Source of the DNA: Thermoanaerobaculia bacterium
GTDB taxonomy: Bacteria; Acidobacteriota; Thermoanaerobaculia; Multivoradales; Multivoraceae
Direction: 5' to 3'
NCBI GenBank assembly: GCA_963664405.1
Contig: OY761158.1
Location: 3,456,001 to 3,520,000 of the forward strand
DNA: 64,000 nt
Below, piece by piece: positions 9,727 through 50,024 of the stretch. The notes below the pieces were generated by a model, which saw nothing but the letters and a program-made list of their open reading frames with translations, was not told the origin of the DNA and did no database searches. The position numbers and the translations under genes were made by a program. Numbering within the stretch: position 1 is the stretch's first letter; every line of letters begins with the position of its first letter.

Positions 9727-9738
9727 TGTTATCGGCGG

Positions 9739-10092
9739 TCATAAAGTGCGGGATTCCGGCTGTGTAGTGGCGCTTTTGGTTTCATCCTCCTCGAGAAGGG
9801 ACCGGTGCCGAAGGAGGATGTAGCGGACGTATTGAGGGTCGAGCTCGTCGTTGGTCAGGGCTCGATGTACGGAGCGGTAGTAGGCAAGTGAGTGAATCTG
9901 CGGCAGCGGATCGGTGCTGAGGCGCCGTCGCAAGGTGGCGAGTCGAATGGCATGGGCAAGCTCTTCGAGGGGGACGTTGGCTTGATAGAGCTTGTCGGCG
10001 ATGGCCCAGTCTCGGCGCCGAGGTCTAGGCGGGGTTTTAGGAGCGTCGAGGTAGAGGCGGATGAGCTCGGCGCGATACTCCTGTCGGATCAC
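9739..10092 (-). CDS. IS-encoded accessory ORF4 (117 aa), homologous to 46639-46995
   Basis: GTG start overlaps the istB TGA; shares RLY..P.TP, LP.I.SLAY and Y..Y motifs with the element 2 ORF; stop codon lies inside the terminal repeat. Confidence 0.75.
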   Translation of the reverse strand: MIRQEYRAELIRLYLDAPKTPPRPRRRDWAIADKLYQANVPLEELAHAIRLATLRRRLSTDPLPQIHSLAYYRSVHRALTNDELDPQYVRYILLRHRSLLEEDETKSATTQPESRTL

Positions 10093-10862
10093 GAGGTCTT
10101 CGCACTGCGCCGTCGAGGGCGAGTGCCGCTTCGGCGGGCCGAAGCGCGCTTCTTGGCGTGCTCCTTGGACTCCTTGAGCCGATAGGAATCGCCCTCGATG
10201 TTGACGAGCTCGCAGCGATGGACGAGGCGATCGACGATGGTGACGACGGTAGTAGCGTTGGGGAAGACCTCTCCCCATTCTCCAAAGGACTTGTTTGTGG
10301 TGATGAGAAGGGACTTATTTTCGTACCTGCGGGAAACGACCTCGAAAAGTAGATCGGCGTGGCGCGTGTCGTAGGACAGATATCCGAGCTCGTCAATGCA
10401 GAGCAGGGATGGGCGCGCAAAGAGCGCGAGCTTGCGCTGAAGGCTGGTCGAGGAGTCTTGTTCGGCGAGGGTGTTGAGCAGCTCCGAGGCGGTGAGGAAT
10501 CGGGCGGTGGCTCCACGTAGTACGGCTTGATGGGCGAGATTCTTGGCAATGAGCGTCTTGCCGATGCCGTTTGGCCCTATCAAGACAGCGTTGTGCCCTC
10601 GGGCGAGCCACTCGAGCCGAAAGAGATCTTCGATCTGCTCGCGGTCGATCTTCTTGGGCCAATTCCAGTCGAAGTCGGCCAGCGGCTTGAAGGTGCCGAG
10701 CCGGGCCCGACCCAGGCGTCGCTCCAGTCCGCGACGGGCTCGCTCCTGCTCTTCCCAGTCGAGCAGGTCGGGGAGCCAGGGTTGGTTGGCGACCTCATCC
10801 CAGTGGGCTAGGAGGCCATGGAGTTTCAGGGCTGTGGCACGCTCTTGGTCGGTGTTGTTCAT
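10089..10862 (-). CDS. istB: IS21 helper AAA+ ATPase IstB
   Basis: Walker A GPNGIGKT, Walker B IDELGY, TTNK, DRLVH and GDSYR. Confidence 0.95.
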   Translation of the reverse strand: MNNTDQERATALKLHGLLAHWDEVANQPWLPDLLDWEEQERARRGLERRLGRARLGTFKPLADFDWNWPKKIDREQIEDLFRLEWLARGHNAVLIGPNGIGKTLIAKNLAHQAVLRGATARFLTASELLNTLAEQDSSTSLQRKLALFARPSLLCIDELGYLSYDTRHADLLFEVVSRRYENKSLLITTNKSFGEWGEVFPNATTVVTIVDRLVHRCELVNIEGDSYRLKESKEHAKKRASARRSGTRPRRRSAKTS

Positions 10863-12358
10863 TCGTCGTCCTCCTCGTCGTTGGGGTTGTCGTAGTCGGC
10901 CAGTGCATGGGGAGTGACCGTGAGCTCCCGGATCCTGGGATCGTCGGGGAGCTGGACAGGCAGCGCGGGTAGGAGTCCCCGCTCGTGGCGCCGACGATCG
11001 AGGATGAGTCGCACCGCTTCGGGATGCGGGGATCCTTTTTCGAGGGCCTCGTCGATCGCCACTGCAAGCTCCCTGGGTCCACTCTCGGCAAGGAGCTCGA
11101 GGAGTCTGGCGACGGCACTCGAGAGTCGTCTCTGCCGTCGGGCCAGCTCCCGCAGGAGCTCTTCGGCCTGGGGCACCGTACGCAGCAGGTAGTCCTGGCC
11201 GCGCTGTGTACGTGCCTCGCGTTTCTGTCGTTCCAGCTCTTCTAGGTGACGGGGGTCTTCGATGATCTGGCCCTTGTCCCAGGACCTTGTGTGCTCGGCG
11301 ATGAGCTGCTCGCGATCGAAGATGCGCACACGCTCCGGGTCTGCGGCGATCTGTAGCGAGCGGGCGATGCGATCATGCGGGATCGAGTAGCGATTCGCAT
11401 CGAAGCTCAGGTAAGGAGTGCGCCGCGTGATCCGCTCGACCCATTCGTGGCAGGGGAAAGGCTGCGCCGGAAGGCTCACGAGATGAGAGCGCTCCTCGAG
11501 ATAGGCCTGCTCGACGGTGCGACGCCGGTCCTGGGGCCACGGGCGCTTCATCGCTCGGTCGCGACACCACTCCAGAGCGTCCCGGTTCAGCGCTTCTCTG
11601 TCCCAGGTGCGACGCAGCGGAAAGAAGGAAGTTCTGACAAAACGAATGGCTCGTTCGACGCGACCTTTTTCATTTCCTCGTCTGGGAGCAACGGGCCTTG
11701 GATCAAAGCCGTAGAAGTCGGCGAGCTCGAGAAGCCGTGGATGAAAGCGAATGGCGCTGCGGCGCCGCTCGAGCACAGCGCTGCGCAGATTGTCGTAGAG
11801 GTGGATCTTGGCCAGACCCTCAAAGAAGGAGAAGGCGAGGACATGCCCGGTCAGGAAGCTCGGCAGACGAGCGTCGTAGAAGAAGTGCAGAAAGAGAGCT
11901 CGCGAGTAGCTCAGCACCATGACGAAGGCGTAGAGACGGCGCTCTCCGCCATCGACCTTTCGGGTGCCGAAGTGAGCCCAGTCCACCTGGGCCTGTTCGC
12001 CGGCAAGCGTACGGAGCACAAAGAAAGCCTCAGGCGCCTTGCGGGGGCGCAGGCCGAGCTCGGCAATGCAGTGGCGGAAGTGATCCTCCCCACCGGGATA
12101 GTCACGCTTCTTGACCATCTCGTAGAGCACGCTCGCCGGCAGCTCCGGGTAGCGCTCAAAGACTTCCTGGATGAAGGGGACGAAGCGATCGACCATGGAC
12201 GCTCGTCGCGGCGATCGAGGCCGGCTCAGCCCTTCGCGTCGAAGGACTCGAGTGACCGTCGAGTGATGGATTCCCAGATGGCGGGCGATCGTGTTGCGCC
12301 GCCAGCCCTCCGACTCATAGAGACGGCGGATCTCGGCGGCGAGCTCGGGAGAGATCAT
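10859..12358 (-). CDS. istA: IS21 DDE transposase IstA
   Basis: N-terminal helix-turn-helix; QVDW, YDN and KGRVE catalytic motifs; NRYSIP. Confidence 0.95.
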   Translation of the reverse strand: MISPELAAEIRRLYESEGWRRNTIARHLGIHHSTVTRVLRREGLSRPRSPRRASMVDRFVPFIQEVFERYPELPASVLYEMVKKRDYPGGEDHFRHCIAELGLRPRKAPEAFFVLRTLAGEQAQVDWAHFGTRKVDGGERRLYAFVMVLSYSRALFLHFFYDARLPSFLTGHVLAFSFFEGLAKIHLYDNLRSAVLERRRSAIRFHPRLLELADFYGFDPRPVAPRRGNEKGRVERAIRFVRTSFFPLRRTWDREALNRDALEWCRDRAMKRPWPQDRRRTVEQAYLEERSHLVSLPAQPFPCHEWVERITRRTPYLSFDANRYSIPHDRIARSLQIAADPERVRIFDREQLIAEHTRSWDKGQIIEDPRHLEELERQKREARTQRGQDYLLRTVPQAEELLRELARRQRRLSSAVARLLELLAESGPRELAVAIDEALEKGSPHPEAVRLILDRRRHERGLLPALPVQLPDDPRIRELTVTPHALADYDNPNDEEDDE

Positions 12359-12806
12359 CCCGCGCCCGCCTGCGCACCGGGCGTACTCGGCGCGATCGCA
12401 AGAAGTCGTGGCGGACAATCGGCTCGCAAGGATGGCGGCACAGCCTGCAGAGAAGCTCCTCGTTCCGACCTCCAACGGACAAGCCTTGCAAAAACAACGG
12501 AAGCGGCGCGGTGGGCCATGACGCCACCGTCGCAGGGCAGCCCCCGGTGCGGCAACTGTGATGCGTCACTTTCTTTGAGCCTTGCTGCTTGCGATCTCGA
12601 TAGGCCTGCTGACGACGAGCATGCAAGCGGCGCCCTCGCGGCGTCTGCTGATAGCGACGCCCGGCCCCGCGAAGGCTGTGGCGCCGAGCCTCATCCCGGC
12701 ACTCCGGCGTGCAATAACGATGGCCGCGATCGCACCAAGAGCAAATGTAGACAGCTTGCCGGCAACGATCGCAAACGAAACGGCGACAATCGGGACGGCG
12801 GCGCAC
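12315..12806 (-). CDS. IS-encoded Cys/Arg-rich putative zinc-binding ORF1 (about 163 aa)
   Basis: CDRC-x5-CSWCDRGHRYC...KVTH...CRLC motif shared with 49265-49660; AGGAGG ribosome-binding site before GTG 12806. Confidence 0.75.
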   Translation of the reverse strand: MRRRPDCRRFVCDRCRQAVYICSWCDRGHRYCTPECRDEARRHSLRGAGRRYQQTPRGRRLHARRQQAYRDRKQQGSKKVTHHSCRTGGCPATVASWPTAPLPLFLQGLSVGGRNEELLCRLCRHPCEPIVRHDFLRSRRVRPVRRRARDDLSRARRRDPPSL

Positions 12807-13057
12807 GGCCCAGGCCTCCTTCGGCCTGGACTTCGCCACCCGCAGGCGGAATACTCCCTCTTCTGGGGCGTCATACCCCAGGCCTTCCGGCGGTGGGCGG
12901 TCACCTTGCTTGGAGTCGCCCCCGCCGGTCTCCCCATACTCCCACCTGCCACGCTGCTCGCGCGCTCGCGCGCGACGATGATGCTGAAGAGACTCTCAGC
13001 AGGAAACGCGGTCAGAAAGCCGGGATCGCGCGCTTCTTAAGCGCCGTTGACAGGTAG

Positions 13058-13964
13058 TGATCGACTTCGGCGCTACGACCTCTACGCCCCGGCCACGGCG
13101 GGCGAGCGGAGGGTCGACTATCGAGATGCGGTGGACGCGGTTCTAGCCACCTTCGGCGACTTCCATCCGCGTTTCGCTCGCGAAGCCCGACGCGTCTTCG
13201 ACGATGGGCACATCGACAGCGAGATTCGAGCCGGCAAAAAAATGGGGGCGTTCTGCGCCTCCGCCGTGCCACACCTCGCCCCTTGGGTGCTGGTGAACTT
13301 CGCGGGTCGTTTACGTGATGTGGCGATACTCGCTCACGAGCTAGGCCACGCGGTTCATGGCATGCTGGCATCTGAGCACTCGGTTCTCACATTCCATCCC
13401 TCGCTACCGATGGCCGAGACCGCGTCGGTTTTCGCTGAGATGTTGATGACCGATCGCCTGCTGCGGGATGAGTCCGACCCGGATTCGCGGCGGGAGCTCC
13501 TGGGTGGCGCCCTCGACGACATATACGCCACGGTGCTGAGGCAGGCTTTCTTCGTTCGTTTCGAGATCAGTGCCCACCGAGCGATATTGGAGAACGCGTC
13601 GACCGAGGATCTCTGCGATCTCTATCTCGAGAACCTATCGGAGCAATTCGGCGACAGTGTGGAGATACCGCGGGAGTTTCGCTACGAGTGGCTTGGTATC
13701 CCTCACATATTCTCGACGCCTTTTTACTGCTACGCCTACAGCTTCGGTCAGTTGCTGGTACTAGCCCTCTATCGGCGCTATCAGAAGGACCCAGACGCTT
13801 TCCTACCTGGCTACCTGCGAATGCTGTCCTACGGTGGTTCGGCCCGCCCCGAACAGATCCTGGCAGAGGCCGATATCAATGCCTCCGACCCCGCCTTCTG
13901 GCAAGGCGGCTTCGACATCGTCGCCGAGATTGTCGACCAGCTCGAATCTCTACCGGCCGCGTAG
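13058..13964 (+). pseudogene. pepF: Oligoendopeptidase F, 3' part containing the catalytic HELGH motif
   Basis: GKKMGAFC, AHELGH, AETAS and FYCYAYSFG motifs. Confidence 0.9.
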
Positions 13965-13970
13965 CCTCCA

Positions 13971-14376
13971 TCCTCGACGCCATGTGGTGTAGCCGTAGGA
14001 AGTGATAGCGATCACTTCCGTATGCGTCGTCCTCGACGCCATGTGGTGTAGCCGTAGGAAGTGATAGCGATCACTTCCGTATGCGTCGTCCTCGACGCCA
14101 TGTGGTGTAGCCGTAGGAAGTGATAGCGATCACTTCCGTATGCGTCGTCCTCGACGCCATGTGGTGTAGCCGTAGGAAGTGATAGTCATCACTTCCGTAT
14201 GCGTCGTCCTCGACGCCATGTGGTGTAGCCGTAGGAAGTGATAGCGATCACTTCCGTATGCGTCGTCCTCGACGCCATGTGGTGTAGCCGTAGGAAGTGA
14301 TAGCCATCACTTCCGTATGCGTCGTCCTCGACGCCATGTGGTGTAGCCGTAGGAAGTGATAGCCATCACTTCCGTA
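13971..14376. repeat. Tandem array of seven 59-bp units, each forming hairpins (GTAG-REP/BIME-like)
   Basis: CATGTGG recurs at 13981, 14040, 14099, 14158, 14217, 14276 and 14335; stems GGAAGTGAT-N4-ATCACTTCC and GCGTCG-TCCT-CGACGC; fills the gap between convergent pepF and fadD. Confidence 0.95.
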
Positions 14377-14378
14377 GG

Positions 14379-16172
14379 CTACGTTAGCCGCTGGGACTTC
14401 AGGTACATCGAAGCGACGTCGTCCGCGTAGCGCTCCATGACCACCCGGCGGCGGATCTTGAGAGTCGGAGTAATCTCGCCCTCTTCTACGGAGAACTCTC
14501 TGGGCATCAGCTTCCAACGACGTACTCTCTCGTGTTCGGCCAACTGGCCGTTGACCTTGGCGACGGTGGCCTCGACGCCCTCCAGGAGCCTGGGATGGGT
14601 AAGTCGCTCTAGGGCCTCCAACTCTTGGATCTCTTCGGGTAGCTCTTCCAGACCCGGAACCAATAGCGCGGTGATGTAGGGGTAGTTGTCGCCGATGACC
14701 ACCGCCTGGGAAAGGACTCCGTCGGCGACGAGAAGCTGCTCGATCGGCTGCGGAGCCACGTTCTTCCCGCCGGAGGTGACAATGAGATCCTTCTTGCGGT
14801 CCGTTATGTAGAGATAGCCGTCGTCGTCGAAATTGCCAACGTCACCGGTGTGGAACCAACCCCTCGCGTCGATAGCCTCTGAGGTGGCCTCCGCGTTGCC
14901 CCAATACCCTTGCATGATCCCCGGTCCCTTGGCCAGAATCTCGCCGTCTTCGGCCAGATCGAGCTCAACGCCAGGAATCGGTTGACCTACGCTGCCGTAG
15001 CGACACGCTCCAGGTCGATTCAGACAAAGAACCGGGGACGTCTCCGTAAGCCCGTAGCCTTCGTATAGACCTACCCCGATTGCATCGAAGAAGCGGCCGA
15101 CGACCTCCGGCAGCGCGGCGCCACCGGCAATTGCCATGCGCAGCCGACCCCCGAGTCGTTCTTTGACCTTGCTGTACACGAGCTTCTCGGCGAGCCTCCT
15201 CTGCAATGCGAGGTGAGGCGCGAATCTCTTCCGCCCGGGGTCGCTGCTCCTCCTGCCGACGTCGAGAGCCCACTCAAAGATGCGCTGTTTGCCGGGCCGC
15301 TCTTTGCTCAGGTTCGCCATCACCCGGAGGTACGCGCGTTCGTAGAGGCGGGGGACCGAGGCCATGACCGTAGGTCGCACGTCGATGAGGGCCCTTGGAG
15401 CTTGCTCGATCGAGGTCAGGTAGTGAATGGCGACACCTCTGTAGAGAAAGAGGTAGTCGGCGATGCGTTGAAAGACGTGAGAGAGGGGTAGGAAGGAGAG
15501 AGTGACGTCTTCGGGCCCGACCCGGAACAACTCAGCACAGGCGCGGAAGTTCGAGACCAGATTGGCATGGGTGAGGACAACGCCCTTTGGGTTTCCGGTA
15601 GTGCCGCTGGTGTAAATGAGGCTCGCGATCTGTTCGGGCTGGACCCTTCCGCGAAAGCCGTCGAGTGGCCGCGTGTCGGCGAGGCCCTTCCCTTCTTCTA
15701 GCAGCGTACCGAGGCCCAGCTCGGACCCTGAGGCATCGTCGTCGTCGATCGCGACCGCGGTGAGAGTGCCCTCGAGAGCTTCGGCCGCTTCTCGAAGCAC
15801 GTCGCCTTTAGCACGGCCGCGATAAAACGCCCAGAGGGCGTTGCTGTTACCCAGGATGAAAGAGATCTGATTGGCTGGAAGAGTAGGGTAGACAGGGACC
15901 GTGATCGCTCCGAGCAGCTGACAGGCAAAGTCGATCGTGTGCCATTCCGGGCAATTCTCTGAGAACAAGGCGACCCGATCTCCCTGAGCGACTCCCCTCT
16001 CCTCGAGCGCCACAGCCAAGTAGTGAATCCGGCTCAGCCAGCTTTCTGTCGAGAGCCACTGCCAGCGCCCTCGACTCTTCCAAGCCACCAGATGCTCTCT
16101 ATCAGCCTGTGCCTCAGCGATGTAGAAGGCGAGCTCGGAGAGGGTCTGGGGTGGTGTCGGGCCGCCAGTCAC
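14379..16172 (-). CDS. fadD: Long-chain fatty acid-CoA ligase (AMP-binding)
   Basis: YTSGTTGNPKG, GYGLTE, FHTGD and TSGGKNVAP motifs. Confidence 0.88.
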   Translation of the reverse strand: MTGGPTPPQTLSELAFYIAEAQADREHLVAWKSRGRWQWLSTESWLSRIHYLAVALEERGVAQGDRVALFSENCPEWHTIDFACQLLGAITVPVYPTLPANQISFILGNSNALWAFYRGRAKGDVLREAAEALEGTLTAVAIDDDDASGSELGLGTLLEEGKGLADTRPLDGFRGRVQPEQIASLIYTSGTTGNPKGVVLTHANLVSNFRACAELFRVGPEDVTLSFLPLSHVFQRIADYLFLYRGVAIHYLTSIEQAPRALIDVRPTVMASVPRLYERAYLRVMANLSKERPGKQRIFEWALDVGRRSSDPGRKRFAPHLALQRRLAEKLVYSKVKERLGGRLRMAIAGGAALPEVVGRFFDAIGVGLYEGYGLTETSPVLCLNRPGACRYGSVGQPIPGVELDLAEDGEILAKGPGIMQGYWGNAEATSEAIDARGWFHTGDVGNFDDDGYLYITDRKKDLIVTSGGKNVAPQPIEQLLVADGVLSQAVVIGDNYPYITALLVPGLEELPEEIQELEALERLTHPRLLEGVEATVAKVNGQLAEHERVRRWKLMPREFSVEEGEITPTLKIRRRVVMERYADDVASMYLKSQRLT

Positions 16173-16181
16173 GTGAGCACC

Positions 16182-16448
16182 CTAACTTGCTGCCAAGGCG
16201 AAAGAGAAGAGGGCTCGGCGGGCGAGAAATAGCAGAGCGAGCGCGAGCATAGGAGATATATCGATGCCGCCGAGTGCCCGTGGCGGAGCCAGTAAACGCA
16301 AAGGTGCGAACACCGGCTCGGTAAGCTTGGTCAGCAGCACCAACGCTGGATTGCGGGGATTCAACCTGAACCACGACAAAACAGCGCTCAGGATGATGAC
16401 CCAGGAGTACAGAGTGAGGGCCTGTGCGATGAGCCAGAGGAGCGCCAT
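16182..16448 (-). CDS. yggT: YggT family membrane protein
   Basis: LSW...NP...LTEP and GGIDISP motifs; follows yggS. Confidence 0.88.
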   Translation of the reverse strand: MALLWLIAQALTLYSWVIILSAVLSWFRLNPRNPALVLLTKLTEPVFAPLRLLAPPRALGGIDISPMLALALLFLARRALFSFALAAS

Positions 16449-16455
16449 GGAATTC

Positions 16456-17193
16456 TCAGCTAACAGTGAGCGGGGGACGAGGGCCAAAGAGCGCTGTGCC
16501 GACGCGGACGTGGGTGGCTCCTTCTTCGATTGCGACTTCGAAGTCCTCGCTCATCCCCATCGAGAGAAGACCTCGAAAAGCTGGACCGTCCGGGAGCGCA
16601 GCGATGCGGTCCCTCAATCTTGCCAGGCGGCGAAACCAGGGGCGCGCAGCTTCCGGGTGAGGGCCTCTGGGTGGAATCGCCATCAAGCCGAGGAGCTCGA
16701 TTCGGGTCAGCTCGCCGAGCCGGGGTAGGGCAGCGATCAGCTGGTCTTCATCGAAACCGTGTTTGCTTTCTTCGGAGGCGAGGTTCACCTCGAGAAAACA
16801 GGGAATCGTGCGCTCCGCCCGTTCACCCTGGTGCTGAAGAGCCTCGGCAATTCGCAGGCGGTCAACGGAGTGTATTGCGTCGAAGAGCTCGACGGCACGA
16901 GTCGCCTTGTTGGTTTGTAGCGGGCCGATGAGGTGCCACTCAGCCTCCTGCGGGAGCTGGGGAATCTTGGTGACGGCCTCTTGCACCCGGTTCTCTGCGA
17001 AGATTCTGAGACCGGCTTCCCACGCTTGCTGCAGAACCTCTATGCTCTGCCGTTTGCTGGCGCCGAGAAGATTCACTTCGCCTGGCCTCCTTTGCGCTCG
17101 ACGCTCGGCGTCTGCAACTCGTTCTCGTATCTTGGCGATACGCTCTTCGATCGAGGGCTTGGAAGCTGCGCCCCGGGCGACGACGCAACTCAG
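16456..17193 (-). CDS. yggS: PLP homeostasis protein YggS (probable CTG start at 17193)
   Basis: ENRVQE, WHLIGPLQTNK, LSMGMS and VRVGTALFG motifs; the conserved N-terminal helix extends upstream of GTG 17076. Confidence 0.9.
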   Translation of the reverse strand: MSCVVARGAASKPSIEERIAKIRERVADAERRAQRRPGEVNLLGASKRQSIEVLQQAWEAGLRIFAENRVQEAVTKIPQLPQEAEWHLIGPLQTNKATRAVELFDAIHSVDRLRIAEALQHQGERAERTIPCFLEVNLASEESKHGFDEDQLIAALPRLGELTRIELLGLMAIPPRGPHPEAARPWFRRLARLRDRIAALPDGPAFRGLLSMGMSEDFEVAIEEGATHVRVGTALFGPRPPLTVS

Positions 17194-17930: not shown

Positions 17931-18012
17931 GAATGAGGCGTCCCTCCGTCGGATTGTTATATATGAGCCGCCGCCAGGCTACCATCGAGCACCTGAGTCC
18001 TCGTACAGCTCC

Positions 18013-18088
18013 TGGTGGGTCCACCTGGATTCGAACCAGGGACCGCCCGGTTATGAGCCGGATGCTCTAACCGCTGAGCTATGGACCC
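18013..18088 (-). tRNA. tRNA with CAT anticodon, most likely tRNA-Ile2 (lysidine) rather than Met
   Basis: GGGTCCATAGCTCAGCGGTTAGAGCATCCGGCTCATAACCGGGCGGTCCCTGGTTCGAATCCAGGTGGACCCACCA; 76 nt, encoded CCA, G1-C72 paired, no initiator GGG/CCC anticodon stem. Confidence 0.92.
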
Positions 18089-18245
18089 GGATGGCCCCCA
18101 GCCGGGGGAACGCAGTATAGCACTGGCGGATGGTGGCGAATGCCCCCCCCGTAAAGGGAGCCTTCGACGCCCCTGAGCTGCTATACTCCTTCGCCTACTA
18201 GGGGTGTTTTAGCCGTTCAGTCTCTCAGATCGACGGGAGGTAGCG

Positions 18246-41622: not shown

Positions 41623-41853
41623 TCAGGAGGGTGACGTTGGGTCTGCCGCCTTTTCCGTTTGAACCTCGTTGAGGGCGGCGTCTTCCTCCGCCTTGATGCC
41701 GCTCTTGAAGTTCTTGATTCCCTCTCCAAGTCCCTTTCCGAGCGCAGGAAGCTTTGAAGCACCGAATACGACGACGAGGATGAGGAGAATCACCAAGAGC
41801 TCTTGCAGCCCCAAGGGGCCGATGAGCAGGGGGAACACATTCAGTAGAGTCAT
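41623..41853 (-). CDS. tatA: Tat translocase subunit TatA/E
   Basis: Membrane segment followed by FGASKLPALGKGLGEGIKNFK. Confidence 0.92.
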   Translation of the reverse strand: MTLLNVFPLLIGPLGLQELLVILLILVVVFGASKLPALGKGLGEGIKNFKSGIKAEEDAALNEVQTEKAADPTSPS

Positions 41854-41886
41854 ATCAAGCTCCTATTCTCAGCATCGGTGGGTACT

Positions 41887-42870: not shown

Positions 42871-42892
42871 CCTAGCTTAGCCCGCATAATCT
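42864..42892 (+). promoter_or_regulatory. Putative sigma70 promoter of the 42924 gene
   Basis: TTGACA-17 bp-TAATCT. Confidence 0.55.
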
Positions 42893-42923
42893 GCCTCGTG
42901 ATCGTTATTGAGGAAGGTGCCGT

Positions 42924-43247
42924 CTGGAAGAGAAACTAGAGCGTCTGCTGCAGGACTTGGGCGAGGCCTTGGTCGAGGCTATCTCGGACTCGTCTGAGAT
43001 CAACGACGGCCTACGCGACTTGCAGCAGGCGGGCTATTCGCTCTACCTGGTGGTGGATTGCAAGAGCACGCGCAAGCCGAAAGCCAGCCGAGACGAACAA
43101 GTCAAAAAGGCGGTGGCGGAAGCCGAAGCGCGGTGCGAGCGGCCACCCGTTTTCAGGATCGATGGCAAAGACCTTCTGTTCCTGCGGTCTATCGGTATCG
43201 ATCCTACGCGGCGCAGCCGGAGTCGTCGCCCCAGCTTGGAGAGCTAG
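42924..43247 (+). CDS. Small hypothetical protein (probable CTG start)
   Basis: GAGGAAGG ribosome-binding site 6 nt before CTG; EEKLERLLQDLGEAL...DLLFLRSIGI. Confidence 0.65.
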   Translation: MEEKLERLLQDLGEALVEAISDSSEINDGLRDLQQAGYSLYLVVDCKSTRKPKASRDEQVKKAVAEAEARCERPPVFRIDGKDLLFLRSIGIDPTRRSRSRRPSLES

Positions 43248-43334
43248 GAGCGTGTCCGAGAATTCGGACAGGCGAGTAGTTCTTAGGGGGGGATGGGCCG
43301 GAGAACGGGCCGCAGGCCCGTTTTCCGGGGCTAG
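43244..43334. repeat. 91-bp CTAG-bounded structured element, copy 2
   Basis: Inverted copy of 26556-26646. Confidence 0.9.
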
Positions 43335-43380
43335 CATCGCAGTGGTCTTGGCCACAGGCTCGAGCCGCGGGGCGCTCCGC

Positions 43381-44118
43381 TCAGGCGTCGACCAGCCAGA
43401 CGAAGGCGAGGTTCCTGCCCGCCTTGGGCCCCTCCCGCCGGTAGCTCCACAGGCGAGCCGCCTCGCAGCGAGTACACTCCTCGACAGATGCGAAGGGGAC
43501 CGCGCGGGTCCCGTCGAGCTGGTGCCGCACGGCCATTGCAAGATCCAGGTGTGGGCGGGCGCCCTCCCCGCGGTCCCGAATCACCTCGGCTCTCCCTGTC
43601 GCCGCCGCGACACTCGAGGCGACATCCTCGCCAACTTCATAACAGCAGCCACCGATGGCGGGCCCGAGGACGGCGTGTGCCTGGGATCGTGTGCGCCAGA
43701 CCTTCGCTGCTTCGGCGATGATTCGAGCCTGAATCCCACGCCAACCAGCGTGAATAGCGGCGATCCTATCGTCGGAAAGTAGCAGCACCGGCACGCAATC
43801 GGCCGTCACAATCCGAAGCGCCAAGCCGGCCTCGCTGGTGATCAGGGCATCTCCATCGCCGCAGTCCCCGGCCTGGGCCTCGACCACTCTGTTCGAGTGC
43901 CGCTGGGTGAGTCGTGCGACCCTCAACCCTTCTTTCGCCAACTCCTCGAGGATCTCCCTCTCGCCGCTGGTCGTAGGCCTTCCATAAAAGCGGAATCTGG
44001 CCCGACCCAGGGCCCCTTGCCACGACCAGTGGCCCGCGTGAATCGAGGCTTCGAGGCGAGGCCACACGAGCGAGGTCGATAGCTTGCCCTCTCCGGCATT
44101 CTGTGGGGGAAGCGTCAT
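43381..44118 (-). CDS. pgeF: PgeF/YfiH family protein
   Basis: Q.H, GDALIT, TADCVPVLL, HAGWRG, GPAIGGCCYEVG and SYRR motifs. Confidence 0.88.
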   Translation of the reverse strand: MTLPPQNAGEGKLSTSLVWPRLEASIHAGHWSWQGALGRARFRFYGRPTTSGEREILEELAKEGLRVARLTQRHSNRVVEAQAGDCGDGDALITSEAGLALRIVTADCVPVLLLSDDRIAAIHAGWRGIQARIIAEAAKVWRTRSQAHAVLGPAIGGCCYEVGEDVASSVAAATGRAEVIRDRGEGARPHLDLAMAVRHQLDGTRAVPFASVEECTRCEAARLWSYRREGPKAGRNLAFVWLVDA

Positions 44119-44183
44119 TGACTCGGGTAGACTACTAAGGTGATTCGAGGACTCGCCGTGATCAATCTTGGACGCACCGCGCG

Positions 44184-45632
44184 ATGAGCTTTGAAGCCGT
44201 AATCGGATTGGAAGTCCATGTCCATCTGAAGACTCGGACGAAGATTTTTTGTCGCTGTCTCAATCGTTTTGGGTGTGGCCCCAATACGCTCATCTGCCCA
44301 GTCTGCGTAGGGTACCCCGGTTCTCTTCCGGTGCTCAATCGAGAGGCGGTGAACCTGGCGATTCACCTCTCGCTTGCTCTCGGTTGCGAAGTTCACAGCA
44401 CCTCCGTCTTTGCTCGCAAGAACTATTTCTACGCCGACCTCCCGAAGGGATATCAAATCAGCCAGTTCGATCGGCCGTTGGCCGAGGGAGGGTCTCTCCC
44501 TCTGTCGCAGTCGGACAAGCGGGTCCGAATCCATCGGCTGCATCTCGAAGAGGATGCGGGAAAGCTCTTGCATGAGACTCCAGGGGGCGGGGCACTTCCA
44601 GGACAGAGCCTTGTCGATTTCAACCGTTGCGGAGTTCCTCTGGTCGAGATCGTGTCGGAGCCCGATATGTCCTCCGCCTCCGAGGCGCAGGACTATCTTC
44701 AGACGATGCACCAAGTGCTGCTCTACACTGGCACCAGCGACGGCAATATGGAAGAGGGCAGCATGAGATGTGATGCGAACATCTCGATCCGGCCGGTCGG
44801 CACGAGCACCCTCGGAACCAAAGTGGAGGTCAAGAACCTGAACTCCTTCCGCAACCTGGCGAAGGCGGTGGACTACGAGATCGAAAGGCAAACGGGCCGT
44901 GTCGAGTCTGGGCACAAAGTGGTGCAGGAGACTCGTTCCTTCGACGCCGCCCTCGGGGTCACTCGCCCCATGCGCTCGAAGGAGGAGGCCCACGATTACC
45001 GCTACTTTCCCGAGCCGGACCTTCCTCCGCTGGTCCTCTCCGAGGAGCGAATCGACCATGCGCGGGGCACCCTGTCGGAGCTTCCCTGGGAGCGCCTCAC
45101 TAGATTCTGCACCCAGTACTCGCTCTCTCGCGAGGATGCTCGACTTCTCACCACGACACCTGAGCTCGCGACCTATTTCGAGGCAGCCGTCGCGCACTAC
45201 TCCGCCAACCCGAAAGGCGTGGCGAACTGGGTGATGACCGAGGTTTTGCGCGAGCTCAAGTCGTATCGCGGCGCGATCGACGAGGCCCTCTCGCCGGAGC
45301 GATTGGCGACCTTGGTGAAGCTTGTGGACAAAGGAGGACTTTCAGGGCGCGGAGCCAAAGAAGTCTTTGCTGCAATCTGGGGTACCGAGGAGTCGCCCGA
45401 GGCCGCAACCGAGCGGCTGGGCCTGGCCCAGGTGCGAGATTCCGGAGAGATCGGCAACTGGGTGAAGGAGGTACTCGCCGAGCACCCGGGTCCTGTCGAC
45501 CAGTATCTCGAAGGGAAGACGAAGGCGATGGGTTTTCTTGTCGGCCAGGTGATGAAACGTTCATCCGGCCGCGCCGACCCGCGTCAGGCACAGGACCAGT
45601 TGCGTCGTTCGCTCGAGCAGATGCAAGCGTAA
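44184..45632 (+). CDS. gatB: Asp/Glu-tRNA amidotransferase subunit B
   Basis: IGLEVH, RKNYFYADLPKGYQISQ, RCDANIS and DYRYFPEPD motifs. Confidence 0.97.
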   Translation: MSFEAVIGLEVHVHLKTRTKIFCRCLNRFGCGPNTLICPVCVGYPGSLPVLNREAVNLAIHLSLALGCEVHSTSVFARKNYFYADLPKGYQISQFDRPLAEGGSLPLSQSDKRVRIHRLHLEEDAGKLLHETPGGGALPGQSLVDFNRCGVPLVEIVSEPDMSSASEAQDYLQTMHQVLLYTGTSDGNMEEGSMRCDANISIRPVGTSTLGTKVEVKNLNSFRNLAKAVDYEIERQTGRVESGHKVVQETRSFDAALGVTRPMRSKEEAHDYRYFPEPDLPPLVLSEERIDHARGTLSELPWERLTRFCTQYSLSREDARLLTTTPELATYFEAAVAHYSANPKGVANWVMTEVLRELKSYRGAIDEALSPERLATLVKLVDKGGLSGRGAKEVFAAIWGTEESPEAATERLGLAQVRDSGEIGNWVKEVLAEHPGPVDQYLEGKTKAMGFLVGQVMKRSSGRADPRQAQDQLRRSLEQMQA

Positions 45633-45665
45633 AGGGTCCGTTCTTTTTCGAGCCGGTGGCTCAGC

Positions 45666-46373
45666 TTGATCCAGTTCTTCAACGTCACCAAGAAGTTCCC
45701 TTCGGGACCGACTGCGTTAGCCGACGTCTCTTTCAAGATCGACCGCGGCGAGTTCGTCTTCCTCACCGGTCCCAGTGGCGCCGGAAAGACGACTCTGCTC
45801 AAGCTCATCTATCGTGAGGAGCTACCCGACTCCGGCCAGATCTTGGTCACCGGACGCAACGTCATCTCACTACCCCGTCGAAAGGTGCCCTATCTGAGGC
45901 GGTCGATCGGCGTCGTGTTCCAGAGCTTCCGTCTCATCTCGCGCAAGACGGTGTTCGAAAACGTTGCCTATCTGCCCAGGATTCTCGGTATGTCGCGCGA
46001 TGAGCAGCAACGAATGTGCGAGAGGGCGTTGCGTCGAGTGGGCCTCGCTCACCGTCTCAACGCGTTTCCAAAGCAGCTCTCCGGGGGCGAGCAGCAACGC
46101 GTCACGCTGGCTCGCTCGTTGGTTTGCGAGCCCCGAATCCTGCTTGCCGACGAGCCGACGGGGAATCTCGACCCTGAGCTGTCGGAGGAGATCCTCGAGC
46201 TCTTCCAGGAGATCCACTCCCAGGGCACAACGGTGATCCTGGCGACCCACGATAGACGTATCTTGGAGACGATTGGAGGGCGGGTCCTGCTTCTCCATCG
46301 GGGGCGTCTGGCGGCGGACGGTGTTCGTGCTGCCAAGCGGGGCTCCGAGGAGCTCGGGGTGGAAGAATCTTGA
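45666..46373 (+). CDS. ftsE: Cell division ATP-binding protein FtsE
   Basis: GPSGAGKTT, LRRSIGVVFQ, LSGGEQQR and DEPTGNLDP motifs. Confidence 0.93.
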   Translation: MIQFFNVTKKFPSGPTALADVSFKIDRGEFVFLTGPSGAGKTTLLKLIYREELPDSGQILVTGRNVISLPRRKVPYLRRSIGVVFQSFRLISRKTVFENVAYLPRILGMSRDEQQRMCERALRRVGLAHRLNAFPKQLSGGEQQRVTLARSLVCEPRILLADEPTGNLDPELSEEILELFQEIHSQGTTVILATHDRRILETIGGRVLLLHRGRLAADGVRAAKRGSEELGVEES

Positions 46374-46629
46374 CGCTGCTGAAGGCTCTGGGCTACTTCT
46401 CCGCGGAGGCTTGGCAGAGCCTGGTGCGGAGCTGGAAGGTCAGCTTGGTGGCGGTGCTGACGATCGGTGTGAGTCTCTTCCTCACCGGCGGCTTTCTCGT
46501 CACGCTGCGGAATCTGTCGACCGCCGTTGCGGGCTGGCAACAAGAGGTTGCTGTGGTCGTCTACATGCCCGCGGAAGTCAACCCGACAGATGTCGAAGAT
46601 CTGCGATTCGTCTTGGACGCGCCTCCATG
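46370..46629 (+). pseudogene. ftsX: FtsX 5' part, interrupted by IS21-like element 2
   Basis: First membrane segment and start of the periplasmic domain; joins 50025 in frame (DAPP-W-VSEV; about 303 aa restored). Confidence 0.88.
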
Positions 46630-46638
46630 TGTTACCGG

Positions 46639-46995
46639 CTACGAGAAAGCGCACTTAGTTGGCTGCGAGTCGGTTTTTTGTCCCCGCGAGGCGTGACTCA
46701 GGGTGTGGCGCAGATAGTCGAGGTACCCCTCGGGGGGTGGCGTCGTGGGGAGTTCTCGGAGGATGGGGAGAAAGTAGGCGAGGGATCGGATGGGCTGGAG
46801 CTTTGGTAGGCGCGGATCTCGGCATGCGCGTCGGGCGGAGCCGAGGAGGAGGGCGGCCTGGAGGACGGTGAGAGGCAGGTCTTGGTCGAAGAGCTGGTCG
46901 ACGATGACGCGGTCGCCGTGGTGGAAGCGGTGCGGGGTGTCGGGAAGGAGTCGATAGAGGCGGAGGAGCTGGCGCCGATAGTGGCTTCGGGTCAT
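46639..46995 (-). CDS. IS-encoded accessory ORF4 (118 aa), homologous to 9739-10092
   Basis: ATG start overlaps the istB TGA; RLY..LPDTP, LQPIRSLAYF and GYLDYL motifs; stop codon lies inside the terminal repeat. Confidence 0.78.
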   Translation of the reverse strand: MTRSHYRRQLLRLYRLLPDTPHRFHHGDRVIVDQLFDQDLPLTVLQAALLLGSARRACRDPRLPKLQPIRSLAYFLPILRELPTTPPPEGYLDYLRHTLSHASRGQKTDSQPTKCAFS

Positions 46996-47786
46996 GAGCG
47001 TCGTCGTGCTGCGCTCCGCCTTTTGGCGCGGTCCTTGGCCTTTTTTTCAGCAGCCTCCTTGGCCTCCTTGCGGCGATAGGAGTTAGCCTCGATCTTGACG
47101 ATCTCGGCGTGGTGGGTGAGTCGATCGACGAGAGTGACGACGCAGGAGGCGTTGGGAAAGACCTCGGCCCATTCGGCGAAGGGCTTGTTGGTGGTGAGAA
47201 GAATGGGCTTGTTGCCGTATCTCCTGGAGACGACCTCGAAGAGGAGATCCGCGTGGCGGTGGTCGTAGGAGAGATAGCCGAGCTCATCGATTGCCAAAAG
47301 CGAGGGTCGGGTGTATTTGGAGAGCCTTCTCTGGAGCGCCGAGGGGGTTTCCTGGACGGCGAGATCGTTGAGCATGTCGGAGGCGGTGACGAAGCTGGCG
47401 GTGGCCCCTCGTTGCAGCGCCTGGTAGAGGAGGTTCTTGGCAATCATGGTCTTGCCGACACCGTTGGGTCCGAGGAGGATGACGTTGGTGATGTCGTCGA
47501 GGAATTGGAGGGTGAGCAGATCCTGGATCTGCTCGCGGTCGATGCGCTGGGGCCAGGAGAAGTCGAAGTCGGCGATGCTCTTGAAGAGCCCGACGCGGCT
47601 GGTGCGGATGCGCCGTTCGAGGCTGCGCCGTTTGCGCTCGGCCTCTTCTTTGCGCAGCAGCTGTTCGAGCCAGGGCTGTTCTCGGTAGGTGCCCCAGTCG
47701 TCGACGAGGGCGTAGAAGCCGAGGGATCGGGCGAGCTCTCGTAGTGGTTCGTCAGGGATCGTTGGACTCTTCCTGGGTCGGGCCAT
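46992..47786 (-). CDS. istB: IS21 helper ATPase IstB
   Basis: GPNGVGKT, IDELGY, TTNK and DRLTHH motifs. Confidence 0.95.
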   Translation of the reverse strand: MARPRKSPTIPDEPLRELARSLGFYALVDDWGTYREQPWLEQLLRKEEAERKRRSLERRIRTSRVGLFKSIADFDFSWPQRIDREQIQDLLTLQFLDDITNVILLGPNGVGKTMIAKNLLYQALQRGATASFVTASDMLNDLAVQETPSALQRRLSKYTRPSLLAIDELGYLSYDHRHADLLFEVVSRRYGNKPILLTTNKPFAEWAEVFPNASCVVTLVDRLTHHAEIVKIEANSYRRKEAKEAAEKKAKDRAKRRSAARRRS

Positions 47787-49260
47787 CGTCGTTGCCTCCA
47801 AGTTGGTCGTAGTCCTCGAGGTTGTGCGGTCTCACGGAGAGATCTCGCTGTTGGAGCTCCTGGCTGAGCGGCACCGGTAAAGCCGGGGGCTGACCGAGGC
47901 CGCGCTGGTGCCGTTCGAGTAGGAGCCGGACGGACTGGAATCGCGGTGCGTGGTTCAGGAGCGCTTCGCGCACGGCTTTGTCGAGTCGCTGGGGGCCGTA
48001 CTGGCGCAGGAGTCGGAGCAGGCCGGCGGTCTGCGTTCCGAGGTTCTCGCCTCGCTCGGCGAGCTGCTGCATCAGCTCTTCGCATCGAGGCACAGCGGAA
48101 AACAGCCGATGGAAGCCCCGGTGTCGTCGGGCCCTGCGTTTGTGAGCGAGGAGCTCCTCGAGGTGTTGAGGATCGAGGATCTGCTCGCCCCGGGAGTACG
48201 AGCGAGGGTGCTCGGCGAGGAGCTCCTGGCCATCGAGGATCCGCACCCGATGCTCGCTGGCGAGGAGCGTGACGGTCCTCTGCACATGACTGTGCGGCAC
48301 CGAGTAGTCGTTGAGGTCGAAGCGCACGATCGGCGTCTTTCTGACCTTGATCTCCAGTCGCAGGTCGGTTTCGAAGTCGTCTCCGGGAAGCTCAAGCAGT
48401 CGAGGTCGTTCCTGGGCCAGGGCGCTTTTCACGGTTCGCTGTCGGTCCTGCGGCCAGGGTCTGCGCTGCGACCTCTGGCACCATTCCAGGACCTGCCGAT
48501 TCAGACGATCCAAATCGCTCACCGTTCGGGCGCCGAAGAACGAGCTTCGCAGGAAGCGGATTGCGCGCTCGACGCGGCCTTTCTCATTTCCCCGAGCCAC
48601 CGCGGCGACGGTGGGAAGGAAGCCGTAGTGGCTGGCGAAATCGAGCAGCACGGGATGGAAGCGCACCGCGGTTCCCTGCCGCTCGATCACCGCGGTTCGC
48701 AGGTTGTCGTACAGAACGGTCCTGACGACGCCGTCGACGTAGTGGAAGGCCAGCTGGTGAGCGTGCAAGAAGGTTTCGAGACGAGTGTCGAGGGTGAAGT
48801 GCACGAAGACCGTGCGCGAGAACGACAGCACGAAGACGAAGGCATAGAGCCGACGATGTGCCCGGCCGACGCGGAGCCGACCGAAGTGGCCCCAGTCGAC
48901 CTGCGCCTGCTCTCCTGGCAGCATGCGCAGCGAGAGAAACGCCTCGCGCTGGGGCTTCGGTCGCATCGAGGCCACCAGGTGGCGAAACTGATCCGGGCCT
49001 CCTGGATAGCCGCGCTCCACCACCATGGTGTAGAGACGGCTCGCCGGCAGTCGTGGGTAGGTCCCGAGCACCTGCTCGATGAACGGCAGGTAAGGATCGA
49101 TCATCCTCCCTCGTCGCTGCTGGGGTAGCACGCCGGACTTCTCCAGCGCCCGGCGCACGGTTGAGGGGTGCAGCTGTAGCTGTCGAGCGATCGTGCCGAC
49201 TTTCCACTTCTCGACCAGGAACAGACGACGGATCTCCCCGCGCAGCTGTGCGTCGATCAC
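47752..49260 (-). CDS. istA: IS21 DDE transposase IstA
   Basis: Helix-turn-helix; QVDW, YDN, KGRVE and NDYSVP motifs. Confidence 0.95.
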   Translation of the reverse strand: MIDAQLRGEIRRLFLVEKWKVGTIARQLQLHPSTVRRALEKSGVLPQQRRGRMIDPYLPFIEQVLGTYPRLPASRLYTMVVERGYPGGPDQFRHLVASMRPKPQREAFLSLRMLPGEQAQVDWGHFGRLRVGRAHRRLYAFVFVLSFSRTVFVHFTLDTRLETFLHAHQLAFHYVDGVVRTVLYDNLRTAVIERQGTAVRFHPVLLDFASHYGFLPTVAAVARGNEKGRVERAIRFLRSSFFGARTVSDLDRLNRQVLEWCQRSQRRPWPQDRQRTVKSALAQERPRLLELPGDDFETDLRLEIKVRKTPIVRFDLNDYSVPHSHVQRTVTLLASEHRVRILDGQELLAEHPRSYSRGEQILDPQHLEELLAHKRRARRHRGFHRLFSAVPRCEELMQQLAERGENLGTQTAGLLRLLRQYGPQRLDKAVREALLNHAPRFQSVRLLLERHQRGLGQPPALPVPLSQELQQRDLSVRPHNLEDYDQLGGNDDGPTQEESNDP

Positions 49261-49264
49261 GCCC

Positions 49265-49660
49265 CTATCTCCGTCGGCAACGACGAAAGCTCGTTCGCAC
49301 AAACTCTCGGCAGGCCTCTCCACACTGCATGCATCGCGGATTCCTCGGGTCGTAGCGCACTTCGCGCCTCGGAGTCTCGATCCGACACAGTGTCCTCCCC
49401 GAAGTACCGCCTGGGGTACCCTGATGCGTCACTTTCTCTGCCCGCTCGCGCTGGCGCCGACGGTAGCGGGCCTGACGGGCGGCATGACAATGCCGACCTC
49501 GGAGGCTTCGCTGGTACCGATGGCCGGCCGCCCGAGTCGATTCCCGACGAGCCACCAGAGCACAAGCCCGGCAGTAACGCTGGCCACGGTCACAGTGCGA
49601 GCACAGCGAGATACGCCGACGGCATCGAGCACAGTCGAAGAGTCGGTAGTCCGGTCGCAT
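49265..49660 (-). CDS. IS-encoded Cys/Arg-rich putative zinc-binding ORF1 (131 aa)
   Basis: CARC-x5-CSHCDRGQRYC...KVTH...CMQC motif; GGGAGG ribosome-binding site. Confidence 0.78.
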   Translation of the reverse strand: MRPDYRLFDCARCRRRISLCSHCDRGQRYCRACALVARRESTRAAGHRYQRSLRGRHCHAARQARYRRRQRERAEKVTHQGTPGGTSGRTLCRIETPRREVRYDPRNPRCMQCGEACREFVRTSFRRCRRR

Positions 49661-50024
49661 CGTCGCCTCCCATTCGACGACGACCCCGACTCTCTGCCAT
49701 ACTGCAAGCGCAGCTAATGCTGCGGTTTGGGGCAGAGCCCGGGGCGTTTTCTACTTCGCTTTCCCGGGCTCTCGCCGTCTCTGGTCGGCCTGCTCTATCA
49801 GAGCAGAGCCCGCACTGCAAAGCCCTACACCGACTCACGCATCTCTTCCGACCGCAAACACGCCGCCGGGACCACGCACCCGGACCGCCGTTCCGGCGGG
49901 ATGATGCCGCCCTTCCTGAAGAAGGCCTAGCTTTCCCGCGGTCGCGAAGCCCTCAGCTCACTCCATCCCGGAAACTGCGCTCGCAGCCAACGGGATGCGC
50001 TTTCTCGCAGCCATCAACACCATG

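Follow-up and report, generated by a model that had tools for sequence, protein, structure and literature searches.

What do two additional genes contribute to a transposon of a family that is described as a two-protein system? This question is raised by two insertion elements, E1 and E2, located in a 64,000-nucleotide stretch of the genome of a Thermoanaerobaculia bacterium (GenBank assembly GCA_963664405.1, contig OY761158.1, positions 3,456,001 to 3,520,000), which is referred to as the window. According to a passage in PMC11208146, IS21 encodes two essential proteins. In E1 and E2, the genes of the IstA transposase and the IstB ATPase are preceded by a cysteine-rich gene, ORF1, and followed by a further gene, ORF4. 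An earlier note on this DNA had proposed that the two extra genes are working parts of a distinct transposon subgroup, kept as the same pair in both elements. The evidence given below argues that both are real, selected genes and identifies ORF1 as the mark of one clade of IstA transposases, with ORF4 as a module separable from it.

The elements E1 (9727..13052, minus strand, 3326 bp) and E2 (46630..50019, minus strand, 3390 bp) are both complete four-gene elements of the IS21 family. E1 is documented by its ends, which were read in the sequence, and by seven full genome copies, E2 by a 41-nt inverted repeat and 21 full genome copies. Both elements end in inverted TGT...ACA. The terminal inverted repeat of E2 is 80% complementary over its 41 nt in a repeat search; the inverted ends of E1, of about 34 nt, were read by eye, the repeat search giving no report of them. 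The two elements share the start TGTTAYCGGC, and their sequences diverge beyond it. E1 interrupts a Peptidase_M3 gene and is flanked by the target-site duplication GGTAG (9722-9726 and 13053-13057), across which the peptidase frame rejoins. E2 interrupts an FtsX gene, the frame of which rejoins across the duplication CCATG (46625-46629 and 50020-50024). By coordinate arithmetic, removal of the element together with one copy of the repeat restores both host frames.

The gene order in both elements is ORF1, istA, istB, ORF4, with all genes on the minus strand. The E1 ORF1 (12315-12839) encodes a cysteine-rich protein of 174 aa if read from the GTG at 12839; the probable start is the GTG at 12806, which follows the Shine-Dalgarno site AGGAGG. 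The istA gene of E1 (10859-12358) probably starts at the ATG at 12358, as placed by alignment to the E2 IstA, and its open frame extends up to 12475. It is followed by istB (10089-10862), which encodes a protein of 257 aa with a match to Pfam IstB_IS21 (E 3.6e-60), and by ORF4 (9739-10092), which encodes 117 aa from a GTG start; the homology to the E2 ORF4 begins at the same GTG. In E2, ORF1 (49265-49660) encodes 131 aa with eight conserved cysteines and is preceded by GGGAGG, located 5 nt ahead of its ATG. The probable start of the E2 istA (47752-49260; Pfam rve and Mu-transpos_C_2) is the GTG at 49260, within a frame open from 49323. The E2 istB (46992-47786; Pfam IstB_IS21, E 1.8e-62) starts at the ATG at 47786 after GGAGG, in a frame open from the TTG at 47801, and the E2 ORF4 (46639-46995) encodes 118 aa from an ATG. 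The junctions are tight: ORF1 and istA overlap by 44 nt in E1, and in E2 the ORF1 stop lies 4 nt ahead of the istA start. ORF4 starts on the istB stop, the joint sequence being GTGA in E1 and ATGA in E2, and the ORF4 stop is located within the inverted repeat, 10-12 nt from the element end (12 nt in E1). The layout that the earlier note had described at 9727-13052 and 46630-50019, including the ends, the gene order and the 5-bp duplications, is thereby borne out. The coordinates also agree with its account of an ORF1 that overlaps or abuts istA and of an ORF4 that starts on the istB stop and ends in the terminal repeat.

The assignment of both elements to the IS21 family is clear from an IstA-type transposase, an IstB encoded downstream of it, TG...CA ends and short duplications. 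The E1 IstA scores 233 bits against NCBIfam transpos_IS21 (cut-off 160), and the E2 IstA copies score 246.5 bits in a genome scan, also above the cut-off. The E1 IstB scores 218 bits against NCBIfam IS21_help_AAA (cut-off 200), and Pfam IstB_IS21 gives 204 bits for E1 and 211 bits for E2. Pfam rve and Mu-transpos_C_2 match both elements; the E2 matches lie above the cut-off, and the rve match of E1 lies below it (29.7 vs 32.6 bits). E1 and E2 share with canonical IS21/IS5376 an IstA with helix-turn-helix (HTH), rve and Mu-transposase C-terminal domains, an IstB assigned to IstB_IS21, inverted ends of the TG...CA type together with internal repeats, a 5-bp duplication and an istA-istB overlap. 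They differ from it in having four genes instead of two within 3.3-3.4 kb, with the cysteine-rich gene before istA and a helical gene after istB. The organisation with istA and istB only is found neither in E1 and E2 nor in the ORF1 clade described below, where four genes are again the rule. Between E1 and E2, the IstA proteins are 50% identical, IstB 61%, ORF1 40% (E 1e-16) and ORF4 36% (E 3e-7).

The genome to which the window belongs is a single contig (C1) of 6.78 Mb. It contains seven full-length copies of E1, one of which is a 95% variant, and all seven are flanked by a 5-bp duplication. E2 is present in 21 full-length copies, 18 of them with a perfect 5-bp duplication and 15 identical to one another. 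Taken together, 25 of the 28 full copies show the duplication. E1 and E2 are active elements. A preference for particular target sites was considered and rejected, since the duplications at the 28 full copies share no consensus. The E2 copy at C1:2646767 carries two insertions in istA and is itself located within an E1 copy. The E1 variant (L002:234-3547, C1:2512933-2516246) is 77-93% identical to E1 in the ORF1 and ORF4 segments and the ends, and 92-100%, mostly 97-100%, in the istA-istB core. This mosaic suggests recombination between related elements; it fits modules that travel with the ends, as seen in one pair of elements.

Purifying selection acts on both extra genes. Between E1 and its variant, the ratio of nonsynonymous to synonymous substitution rates (dN/dS) is 0.36 for ORF1 and 0.36 for ORF4, compared with 0.11 for IstA and 0.15 for IstB; the other two frames of the same stretches give 0.9-1.9 overall and 1.5-1.9 for ORF4. 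Among loci of other genomes and metagenomes, in pairs of 80-97% nucleotide identity which are not independent of one another, the median dN/dS is 0.285 for ORF1 (158 pairs), 0.176 for ORF4 (53 pairs), 0.136 for IstA (165 pairs) and 0.070 for IstB (257 pairs), and no pair reaches or exceeds 1. The earlier note had suggested dN/dS as a check on its proposal, and the values for ORF1 and ORF4 are both well below 1. In the family alignment of ORF1, the cysteines 10, 13, 20, 30, 33, 110 and 113 are invariant and C23 is nearly invariant, and the motifs RYQ, HA.RQ and KVTHQGS are conserved as well. The invariant residues of ORF4 are R55, R56, S71, Y74, Y91 and Y94. The fixed positions of the two genes, their overlapping start and stop codons and the Shine-Dalgarno sites disfavour random passengers, and the observations argue that ORF1 and ORF4 are real selected genes. 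A fusion of ORF1 to IstA by programmed frameshifting was rejected, as the relative frame of istA varies among loci (+1, 0 or +2).

Relatives of both proteins are numerous. Of 308 candidate proteins, 232 belong to the ORF1 family at E 0.001 or better, and 318 ORF1 loci are present in one genome per species. Their hosts include Burkholderiales, Gammaproteobacteria, Planctomycetota, Acidobacteriota, Actinomycetota and Verrucomicrobiota, as well as plasmids of Mesorhizobium and Hydrogenophaga. The ORF4 family contains at least 1640 clusters (50% identity) at E 0.001 or better, 906 of them at E 1e-10 or better, and at least 581 ORF4 metagenome loci were confirmed. In the source records, the named relatives of ORF1 and ORF4 are hypothetical proteins. 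The four-gene layout also occurs on the reference plasmids of Methylotuvimicrobium 20Z and Aromatoleum EbN1, where ORF1 is unannotated or cut short and the fourth gene is listed as hypothetical. NC_016108 and NC_006823 are examples of records with copies of the proteobacterial relatives.

The linkage of the extra genes to istA and istB was counted in the best 80 of the 318 ORF1-seeded loci and in the best 80 of the at least 581 ORF4-seeded metagenome loci. The istA gene adjoins ORF1 in 71 of the 74 ORF1-seeded loci with at least 500 nt of downstream sequence. In one of the three exceptions, L075, a foreign transposase gene on the opposite strand stands right after ORF1 and is read as another inserted element; the other two have only about 1 kb of downstream sequence. 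Where at least 3 kb follows ORF1 (38 loci), istB is found in 33 loci and ORF4 in eight. Conversely, istB adjoins ORF4 in 57 of the 58 ORF4-seeded loci with at least 900 nt upstream, and ORF1 is present in 13 of the 20 with at least 3.2 kb upstream. Among the seven loci without ORF1, six have a cut-short istA or istB; the remaining one, L137, is a member of a diverged group. Of 52 loci with a gene after istB, several of which are copies of one element, 47 have the start of this gene one base ahead of the istB stop; for ORF4, the overlap usually reads ATGA or GTGA. A relative of ORF4 is present in 19 of the 401 sampled genomes of the phylum of the window's genome. In a set of 30 ORF4 loci taken from these genomes, an IstB homologue stands just upstream in 24 cases and the ATPase of a third element, described below, in four; two loci are too short for assignment.

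The distribution of ORF1 follows the phylogeny of the transposase. A quick IstA tree was built from 76 rows, which were left from 119 after near-copies had been dropped; L202, from an unpublished genome, and five loci not meant for the test were left out. All 55 ORF1-positive rows fall into one 60-row clade (Shimodaira-Hasegawa-like approximate likelihood ratio test, SH-aLRT, 99; stem length 1.14), which also holds the ORF1-negative L127, where the start of istA is missing, and four unscorable rows. The other 14 ORF1-negative rows fall outside it. Rows that were found by the IstA model alone follow the same split: L201, L210 and L213 lie inside the clade and have ORF1, and twelve rows lie outside and lack it. 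The bias introduced by baiting is therefore real but is not the cause of the pattern. The tally of the IstA model includes the unpublished genome G049, on which no claim rests. ORF1 marks one well-supported IstA clade. Linkage to istAB and placement on an IstA phylogeny had been put forward in the earlier note as checks, and on both counts its proposal is upheld (71 of 74 for ORF1 and istA, 57 of 58 for ORF4 and istB, ORF1 confined to one clade).

The fourth position of the ORF1 clade is not always occupied by ORF4. The lineages with ORF4 are a soil-metagenome branch, E1/E2, and one each from Acidobacteriota, Actinomycetota and Planctomycetota. Within the clade, 27 rows form a subclade of their own (SH-aLRT 98), which belongs almost entirely to Pseudomonadota; here the fourth position is taken by another gene, of 63-82 aa (L020:8678-8893, L011:8783-8983 and 17 further loci). 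It is unrelated to ORF4, with an hhalign probability of 0.3%. In all 19 aligned sequences, the C-terminus of this alternative protein consists of acidic residues followed by an invariant PF, as in DQDLPF, NDEIPF and DDDMPF. The tail of SSB, given in a part of PMC5531588 as DDDIPF or DDDLPF, is described there as a site where partner proteins bind. The alternative protein and the SSB tail are alike in the acidic run and the terminal PF, a likeness by motif only; in contrast to SSB, the protein has 63-82 aa and no oligonucleotide/oligosaccharide-binding (OB) fold. ORF1 and ORF4 are separable modules. The single fixed pair assumed by the earlier note was thus too narrow a description, given an ORF4 in eight of 38 ORF1-seeded loci and an unrelated fourth gene in the proteobacterial subclade.

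ORF4 also occurs outside the four-gene layout. A third element (T3), about 3.56 kb long and flanked by 5-bp duplications, ends in TGAGAG...CTCTCA and is present in five copies in the genome, none of them in the window (L001:227-3782, which corresponds to C1:4399926-4403481; the others are located near C1:265038, 540881, 6174168 and 6613399). It encodes a cysteine-rich protein with an HTH match, an rve transposase, an AAA_22 ATPase, which is not IstB, and an ORF4 homologue. The transposase stays below all NCBIfam cut-offs, the best match being IS481 with 124 bits against a cut-off of 224. The ORF4 homologue shares 38% identity with the E2 ORF4, and its start overlaps the ATPase stop. G164, a genome of the same phylum and a different family, has the third element at 98% protein identity, together with three ORF4 matches the score and identity of which equal those of the E2 copies; these matches suggest recent transfer.

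Furthermore, ORF4 is found in IS21 elements without ORF1 (L137, L153), and in L177 and L192 it is fused to a winged-helix-like domain. This long-form ORF4 follows a more distant IstB, with no ORF1 detected, and consists of a winged-helix-like N-terminus and ORF4 as the C-terminal domain. Its open frames comprise 271-317 aa, and the L192 protein has about 235 aa when counted from the first start codon. The N-terminus gives weak matches to HTH_24 (E 5.5e-4, below the cut-off), to HTH_36 in two proteins (E 0.02-0.06) and to PHROG 186, annotated as DnaD-like helicase loader (E 0.0038). On the minus strand of L177 (1402-3015), IstB and the long-form ORF4 lie in a single open frame of 538 aa with no stop between them; other copies in the same genome have separate frames of 284 aa. 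L137 is a diverged IS21 element with a short ORF4. Two ORFs stand upstream of its istA (L137:214-1762), one cysteine-rich (178 aa) and one of 398 aa that looks ParB-like by eye. T3 and L137, as further elements with a short ORF4, also begin with a cysteine-rich ORF.

ORF1 and ORF4 are also found joined in one protein. Among the matches listed, at least 16 distinct fusion proteins of 246-283 aa consist of an ORF1 domain followed by an ORF4 domain. The 150 best profile matches contain four of them and the 120 matches listed for a fusion query 14, with two shared. Their pairwise identity ranges from 36 to 91% (median 51%), which indicates an old fused family and not a single deletion. The genomic context of the fusions was seen for one protein: at L105:2-808, on a metagenome contig, the fusion gene is followed by a tyrosine-recombinase gene with an ATGA overlap. 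On another metagenome contig (L113:989-2160), separate adjacent ORF1 and ORF4 genes precede the same kind of recombinase, and on a third (L155:424-2405) a relic of the IstB C-terminus stands between ORF1 and ORF4, and the recombinase gene overlaps the ORF4 stop. The L155 recombinase matches PF00589 (Phage_integrase, E 5.9e-17) and PF02899 (N-terminal SAM-like, E 1.3e-6). None of these three loci has istA or a complete istB, L155 having only the relic. The simplest reading appears to be that this lineage originated from a four-gene IS21 element, lost istA and istB and kept ORF1 and ORF4 beside a new recombinase. The presence of the pair beside a tyrosine recombinase, together with the fusions, points to a role which is not tied to the chemistry of IstA and IstB. 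At L140, the same kind of recombinase is encoded on the opposite strand, just past a complete four-gene element.

The predicted structures give some indication of what the two proteins may be. The AlphaFold2 model of the E2 ORF1 has a predicted local distance difference test score (pLDDT) of 81.3 and contains two short hairpin strands and two long basic helices; the model of the E2 ORF4 (pLDDT 89.3) contains five helices. No family for ORF1, the short ORF4 or the alternative fourth gene was found in Pfam, NCBIfam, PHROGs or PADLOC, and PADLOC at E up to 0.05 gave no match for these three or for one fusion protein. Against Pfam, ORF1 yielded only a weak match to Rhodanese_C in nine of 30 members (best E 0.041). 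A profile search of Protein Data Bank sequences gave no useful match, and Foldseek returned nothing at E 0.001 or better for the ORF1 or the ORF4 model. In a wide structural search, the ORF4 model matched lid subdomains of AAA+ ATPases with Z scores of 5-7.1 (Vps4 and the 55LCC ATPase complex 7.1, spastin 6.6) and the DnaD-like domains 2zc2 (Z 6.1, 71 of 75 residues) and 2i5u (Z 6.0, root-mean-square deviation 2.4, 66 of 77 residues); the search tool rates such values as common by chance among helical bundles. Pfam DnaB_2 (PF07261) matched none of 31 ORF4 family members at E up to 1 and nothing in the window's genome, where ORF4 is present in more than 28 copies. In the 401 genomes of the phylum, it found only eight open frames of 576-612 aa, all of a single family and none in an ORF4-holding genome. 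The likeness to DnaD may be taken as a lead from two weak and independent hints, the predicted fold of the ORF4 C-terminus and the PHROG match of the long-form winged helix. With DnaD-like helicase loaders, the long-form ORF4 shares a winged-helix-like N-terminus, a helical C-terminal domain and a location beside the gene of a DnaC-like ATPase. It differs from them in the missing Pfam DnaB_2 match and in scores of the chance range, and the short ORF4 of the window has no winged helix.

As a tentative reading, and the one which we favour, we propose that ORF1 and ORF4 form a two-part accessory factor on DNA that would control or assemble the recombination complex of the element, or its expression. 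ORF1 would be the nucleic-acid-binding part, probably with two zinc sites formed from eight cysteines, followed by two long arginine-rich helices. ORF4, with its compact predicted fold of five helices, would act as an adaptor or effector and need a DNA-binding partner. This partner could be ORF1 in trans, a fused ORF1 or, in elements without ORF1, the fused winged-helix-like domain. DNA binding is suggested by the cysteine clusters and basic helices of ORF1, by the weak winged-helix matches of the long-form ORF4 and by the cysteine-rich ORFs with which T3 and L137 begin. The pair would act at the ends or the leader of the element, in the manner of the small DNA-binding proteins encoded upstream of other transposases. 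Since ORF1 and ORF4 are found naturally as one fused polypeptide, they probably work together, and because the pair survives beside a tyrosine recombinase, it may serve the element rather than the chemistry of IstA and IstB.

A number of observations weigh against this proposal. The E2 copies at C1:449310-452700 and C1:2716753-2720143 both have the same extra base at element position 3289, within ORF4, and are flanked by different duplications, GGTGG and CAGGG. E2 copies with a frameshifted ORF4 have thus moved, and an intact ORF4 in cis is not needed for movement, which argues against a strict need; the 18 full E2 copies with an unchanged ORF4 could provide the protein in trans. ORF1 and ORF4 are not obligate partners, as ORF4 occurs without ORF1. 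The cysteine-rich ORFs in the first position of T3 and L137 have no homology to ORF1 that BLASTP or hhalign could detect, so that here the argument is one by analogy. No fold or family match from Foldseek, Pfam or Protein Data Bank sequences backs DNA binding by ORF1. Furthermore, the loci were baited with ORF1 or ORF4 and many are copies or kin, so the counts overstate their independence. The idea of working parts of a distinct subgroup, put forward in the earlier note, is partly supported: selection, linkage and the IstA clade are in its favour, and the loose pairing and the ORF4 frameshift in two moved E2 copies show the picture of one fixed pair to be too narrow.

The main rival explanation, which we regard as unlikely, is that the fourth gene brings the replication-restart or gap-repair machinery of the host to the product of strand transfer. 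In that case ORF4 would pair with the DnaC-like IstB as a DnaD-C-terminal-like protein, ORF1 would merely anchor it to DNA, and the alternative proteobacterial gene would do the same job by mimicry of the SSB tail. The coverage of nearly the full DnaD-like domains 2zc2 and 2i5u by the ORF4 model speaks for this, as do the match of the long-form winged-helix part to PHROG 186 (E 0.0038) and the acidic-PF tail in 19 of 19 alternative fourth genes, which resembles the SSB tail given in that part of PMC5531588; two unrelated genes in one position could share such a role. However, the DnaD Z scores lie below the level common among helical bundles and are exceeded by those of AAA+ lids (Z 7.1), Pfam DnaB_2 finds no ORF4 copy in the genome and its matches in the phylum belong to another protein group, and the short ORF4 has no PHROG match. 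Moreover, the pair also stands beside tyrosine recombinases, the reaction of which leaves no gaps to repair. It is improbable that ORF1-ORF4 is a portable module of IS21, rve/AAA_22 and tyrosine-recombinase elements which links DNA to the host replication-restart machinery, through either a DnaD-like ORF4 or a fourth gene that mimics the SSB tail. If true, a large IS21 clade would encode its own primosome adaptors, and a second component besides IstB would be related to helicase loaders.

Whether the two genes act in recombination at all can also be doubted. They might be cargo that benefits the element or the host in another way, for example as an anti-defence system, an addiction module or a host regulator. 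Their spread over unrelated machineries (IstA/IstB, the rve transposase with the AAA_22 ATPase, tyrosine recombinases), the movement of E2 with a frameshifted ORF4 and the faster evolution of ORF1 and ORF4 compared with IstA and IstB would agree with this. Cargo genes usually vary in content and place, whereas ORF1 and ORF4 are fixed at the ends of the gene set with overlapping or abutting starts and stops throughout the clade; there is no PADLOC match, and the fusion into one protein speaks against a toxin-antitoxin pair. We consider a cargo function rather improbable. It is very unlikely that ORF4 is a cofactor of the ATPase encoded upstream, that is, a lid-like helical domain which tunes ATPase turnover or oligomerisation in trans. 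The best structural matches of ORF4 are indeed AAA+ lids (Vps4 and 55LCC, Z 7.1; spastin, Z 6.6), ORF4 follows an ATPase gene (IstB or AAA_22) with an overlapping start, and the L177 frame runs from IstB into the long-form ORF4. Yet these Z scores are within the chance range for helical bundles, the in-frame junction occurs at one locus with separate frames of 284 aa in the other copies, and ORF4 is kept without a complete ATPase gene in L105 and L113, which have none, and in L155, which has a relic, or is fused to ORF1 instead. That one or both ORFs are not genes at all, but frames open by chance or by a constraint on the DNA such as transposase-binding sites in the ends, is scarcely credible. 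The last codons of ORF4 do lie within the inverted repeat, and GC-rich DNA yields many long spurious frames; against this stand a dN/dS well below 1 in the named frame only, the large families (at least 1640 ORF4 clusters and 318 ORF1 loci), confident fold predictions, and cysteine and arginine columns that are invariant or nearly so. The preferred reading remains that of a two-part accessory factor.

Comparable accessory proteins are known from other elements. InsA of IS1 and OrfA of the IS3 family are small DNA-binding regulators encoded upstream of transposases. As in these, a small, basic and probably metal-binding protein is encoded just upstream of the transposase gene in E1 and E2, overlapping or abutting it; no sequence relation to InsA or OrfA was found, and ORF1 differs in having no conserved frameshift fusion and in having a partner gene at the far end. 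TnsD and TnsE of Tn7, TniQ of Tn5053 and the host factors of phage Mu are accessory proteins that operate beside a transposase and an ATPase. These systems resemble E1 and E2 in the combination of extra element-encoded proteins with a DDE transposase and an AAA+ regulator. They are unlike them in that no homology was found and in that the 28 insertion sites studied here have no target consensus. The literature searched, which did not include ISfinder and TnPedia, where the layout may already be listed, yielded no account of IS21 elements that carry these two genes, and the ORF1 and ORF4 families have no entry in the libraries searched. IS21 serves as a structural model for transposases under the control of a dedicated AAA+ ATPase, and the present findings point to a large, phylogenetically coherent IS21 clade, with 318 loci in species-representative genomes, in which a third gene is always present and a fourth nearly always. 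If the pair regulates or assists transposition, models of IS21 with IstA and IstB only would be incomplete for much of the family, and genome annotation could name both genes.

Some further features of the elements and their surroundings were noted. The RNA library contained one 247-nt contig identical to a part of istB and none on ORF1 or ORF4, and is uninformative on the expression of the two genes. In E2, no sigma-70-like promoter was found, and terminator-like sites are no more frequent than in shuffled sequences. The non-coding leader of E2 (49661..50019, minus strand, 359 nt) contains an internal repeat of the GCTTTCCCG type besides the inverted repeat of the left end (49980-50019). The ftsX-like gene split by E2 occupies the positions 45666-46696 and 50020-50676 of the window, and the gene directly upstream of it looks ftsE-like by eye, the scan having covered the FtsX part. 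Elsewhere in the genome, at L003:1367-1819 (C1:1147866-1148318), a lone ORF1-like gene of 150 aa is present with no istA or istB nearby. The last residues of its product resemble the end of the E1 ORF4 within the inverted repeat, and the locus looks like an internally deleted element.

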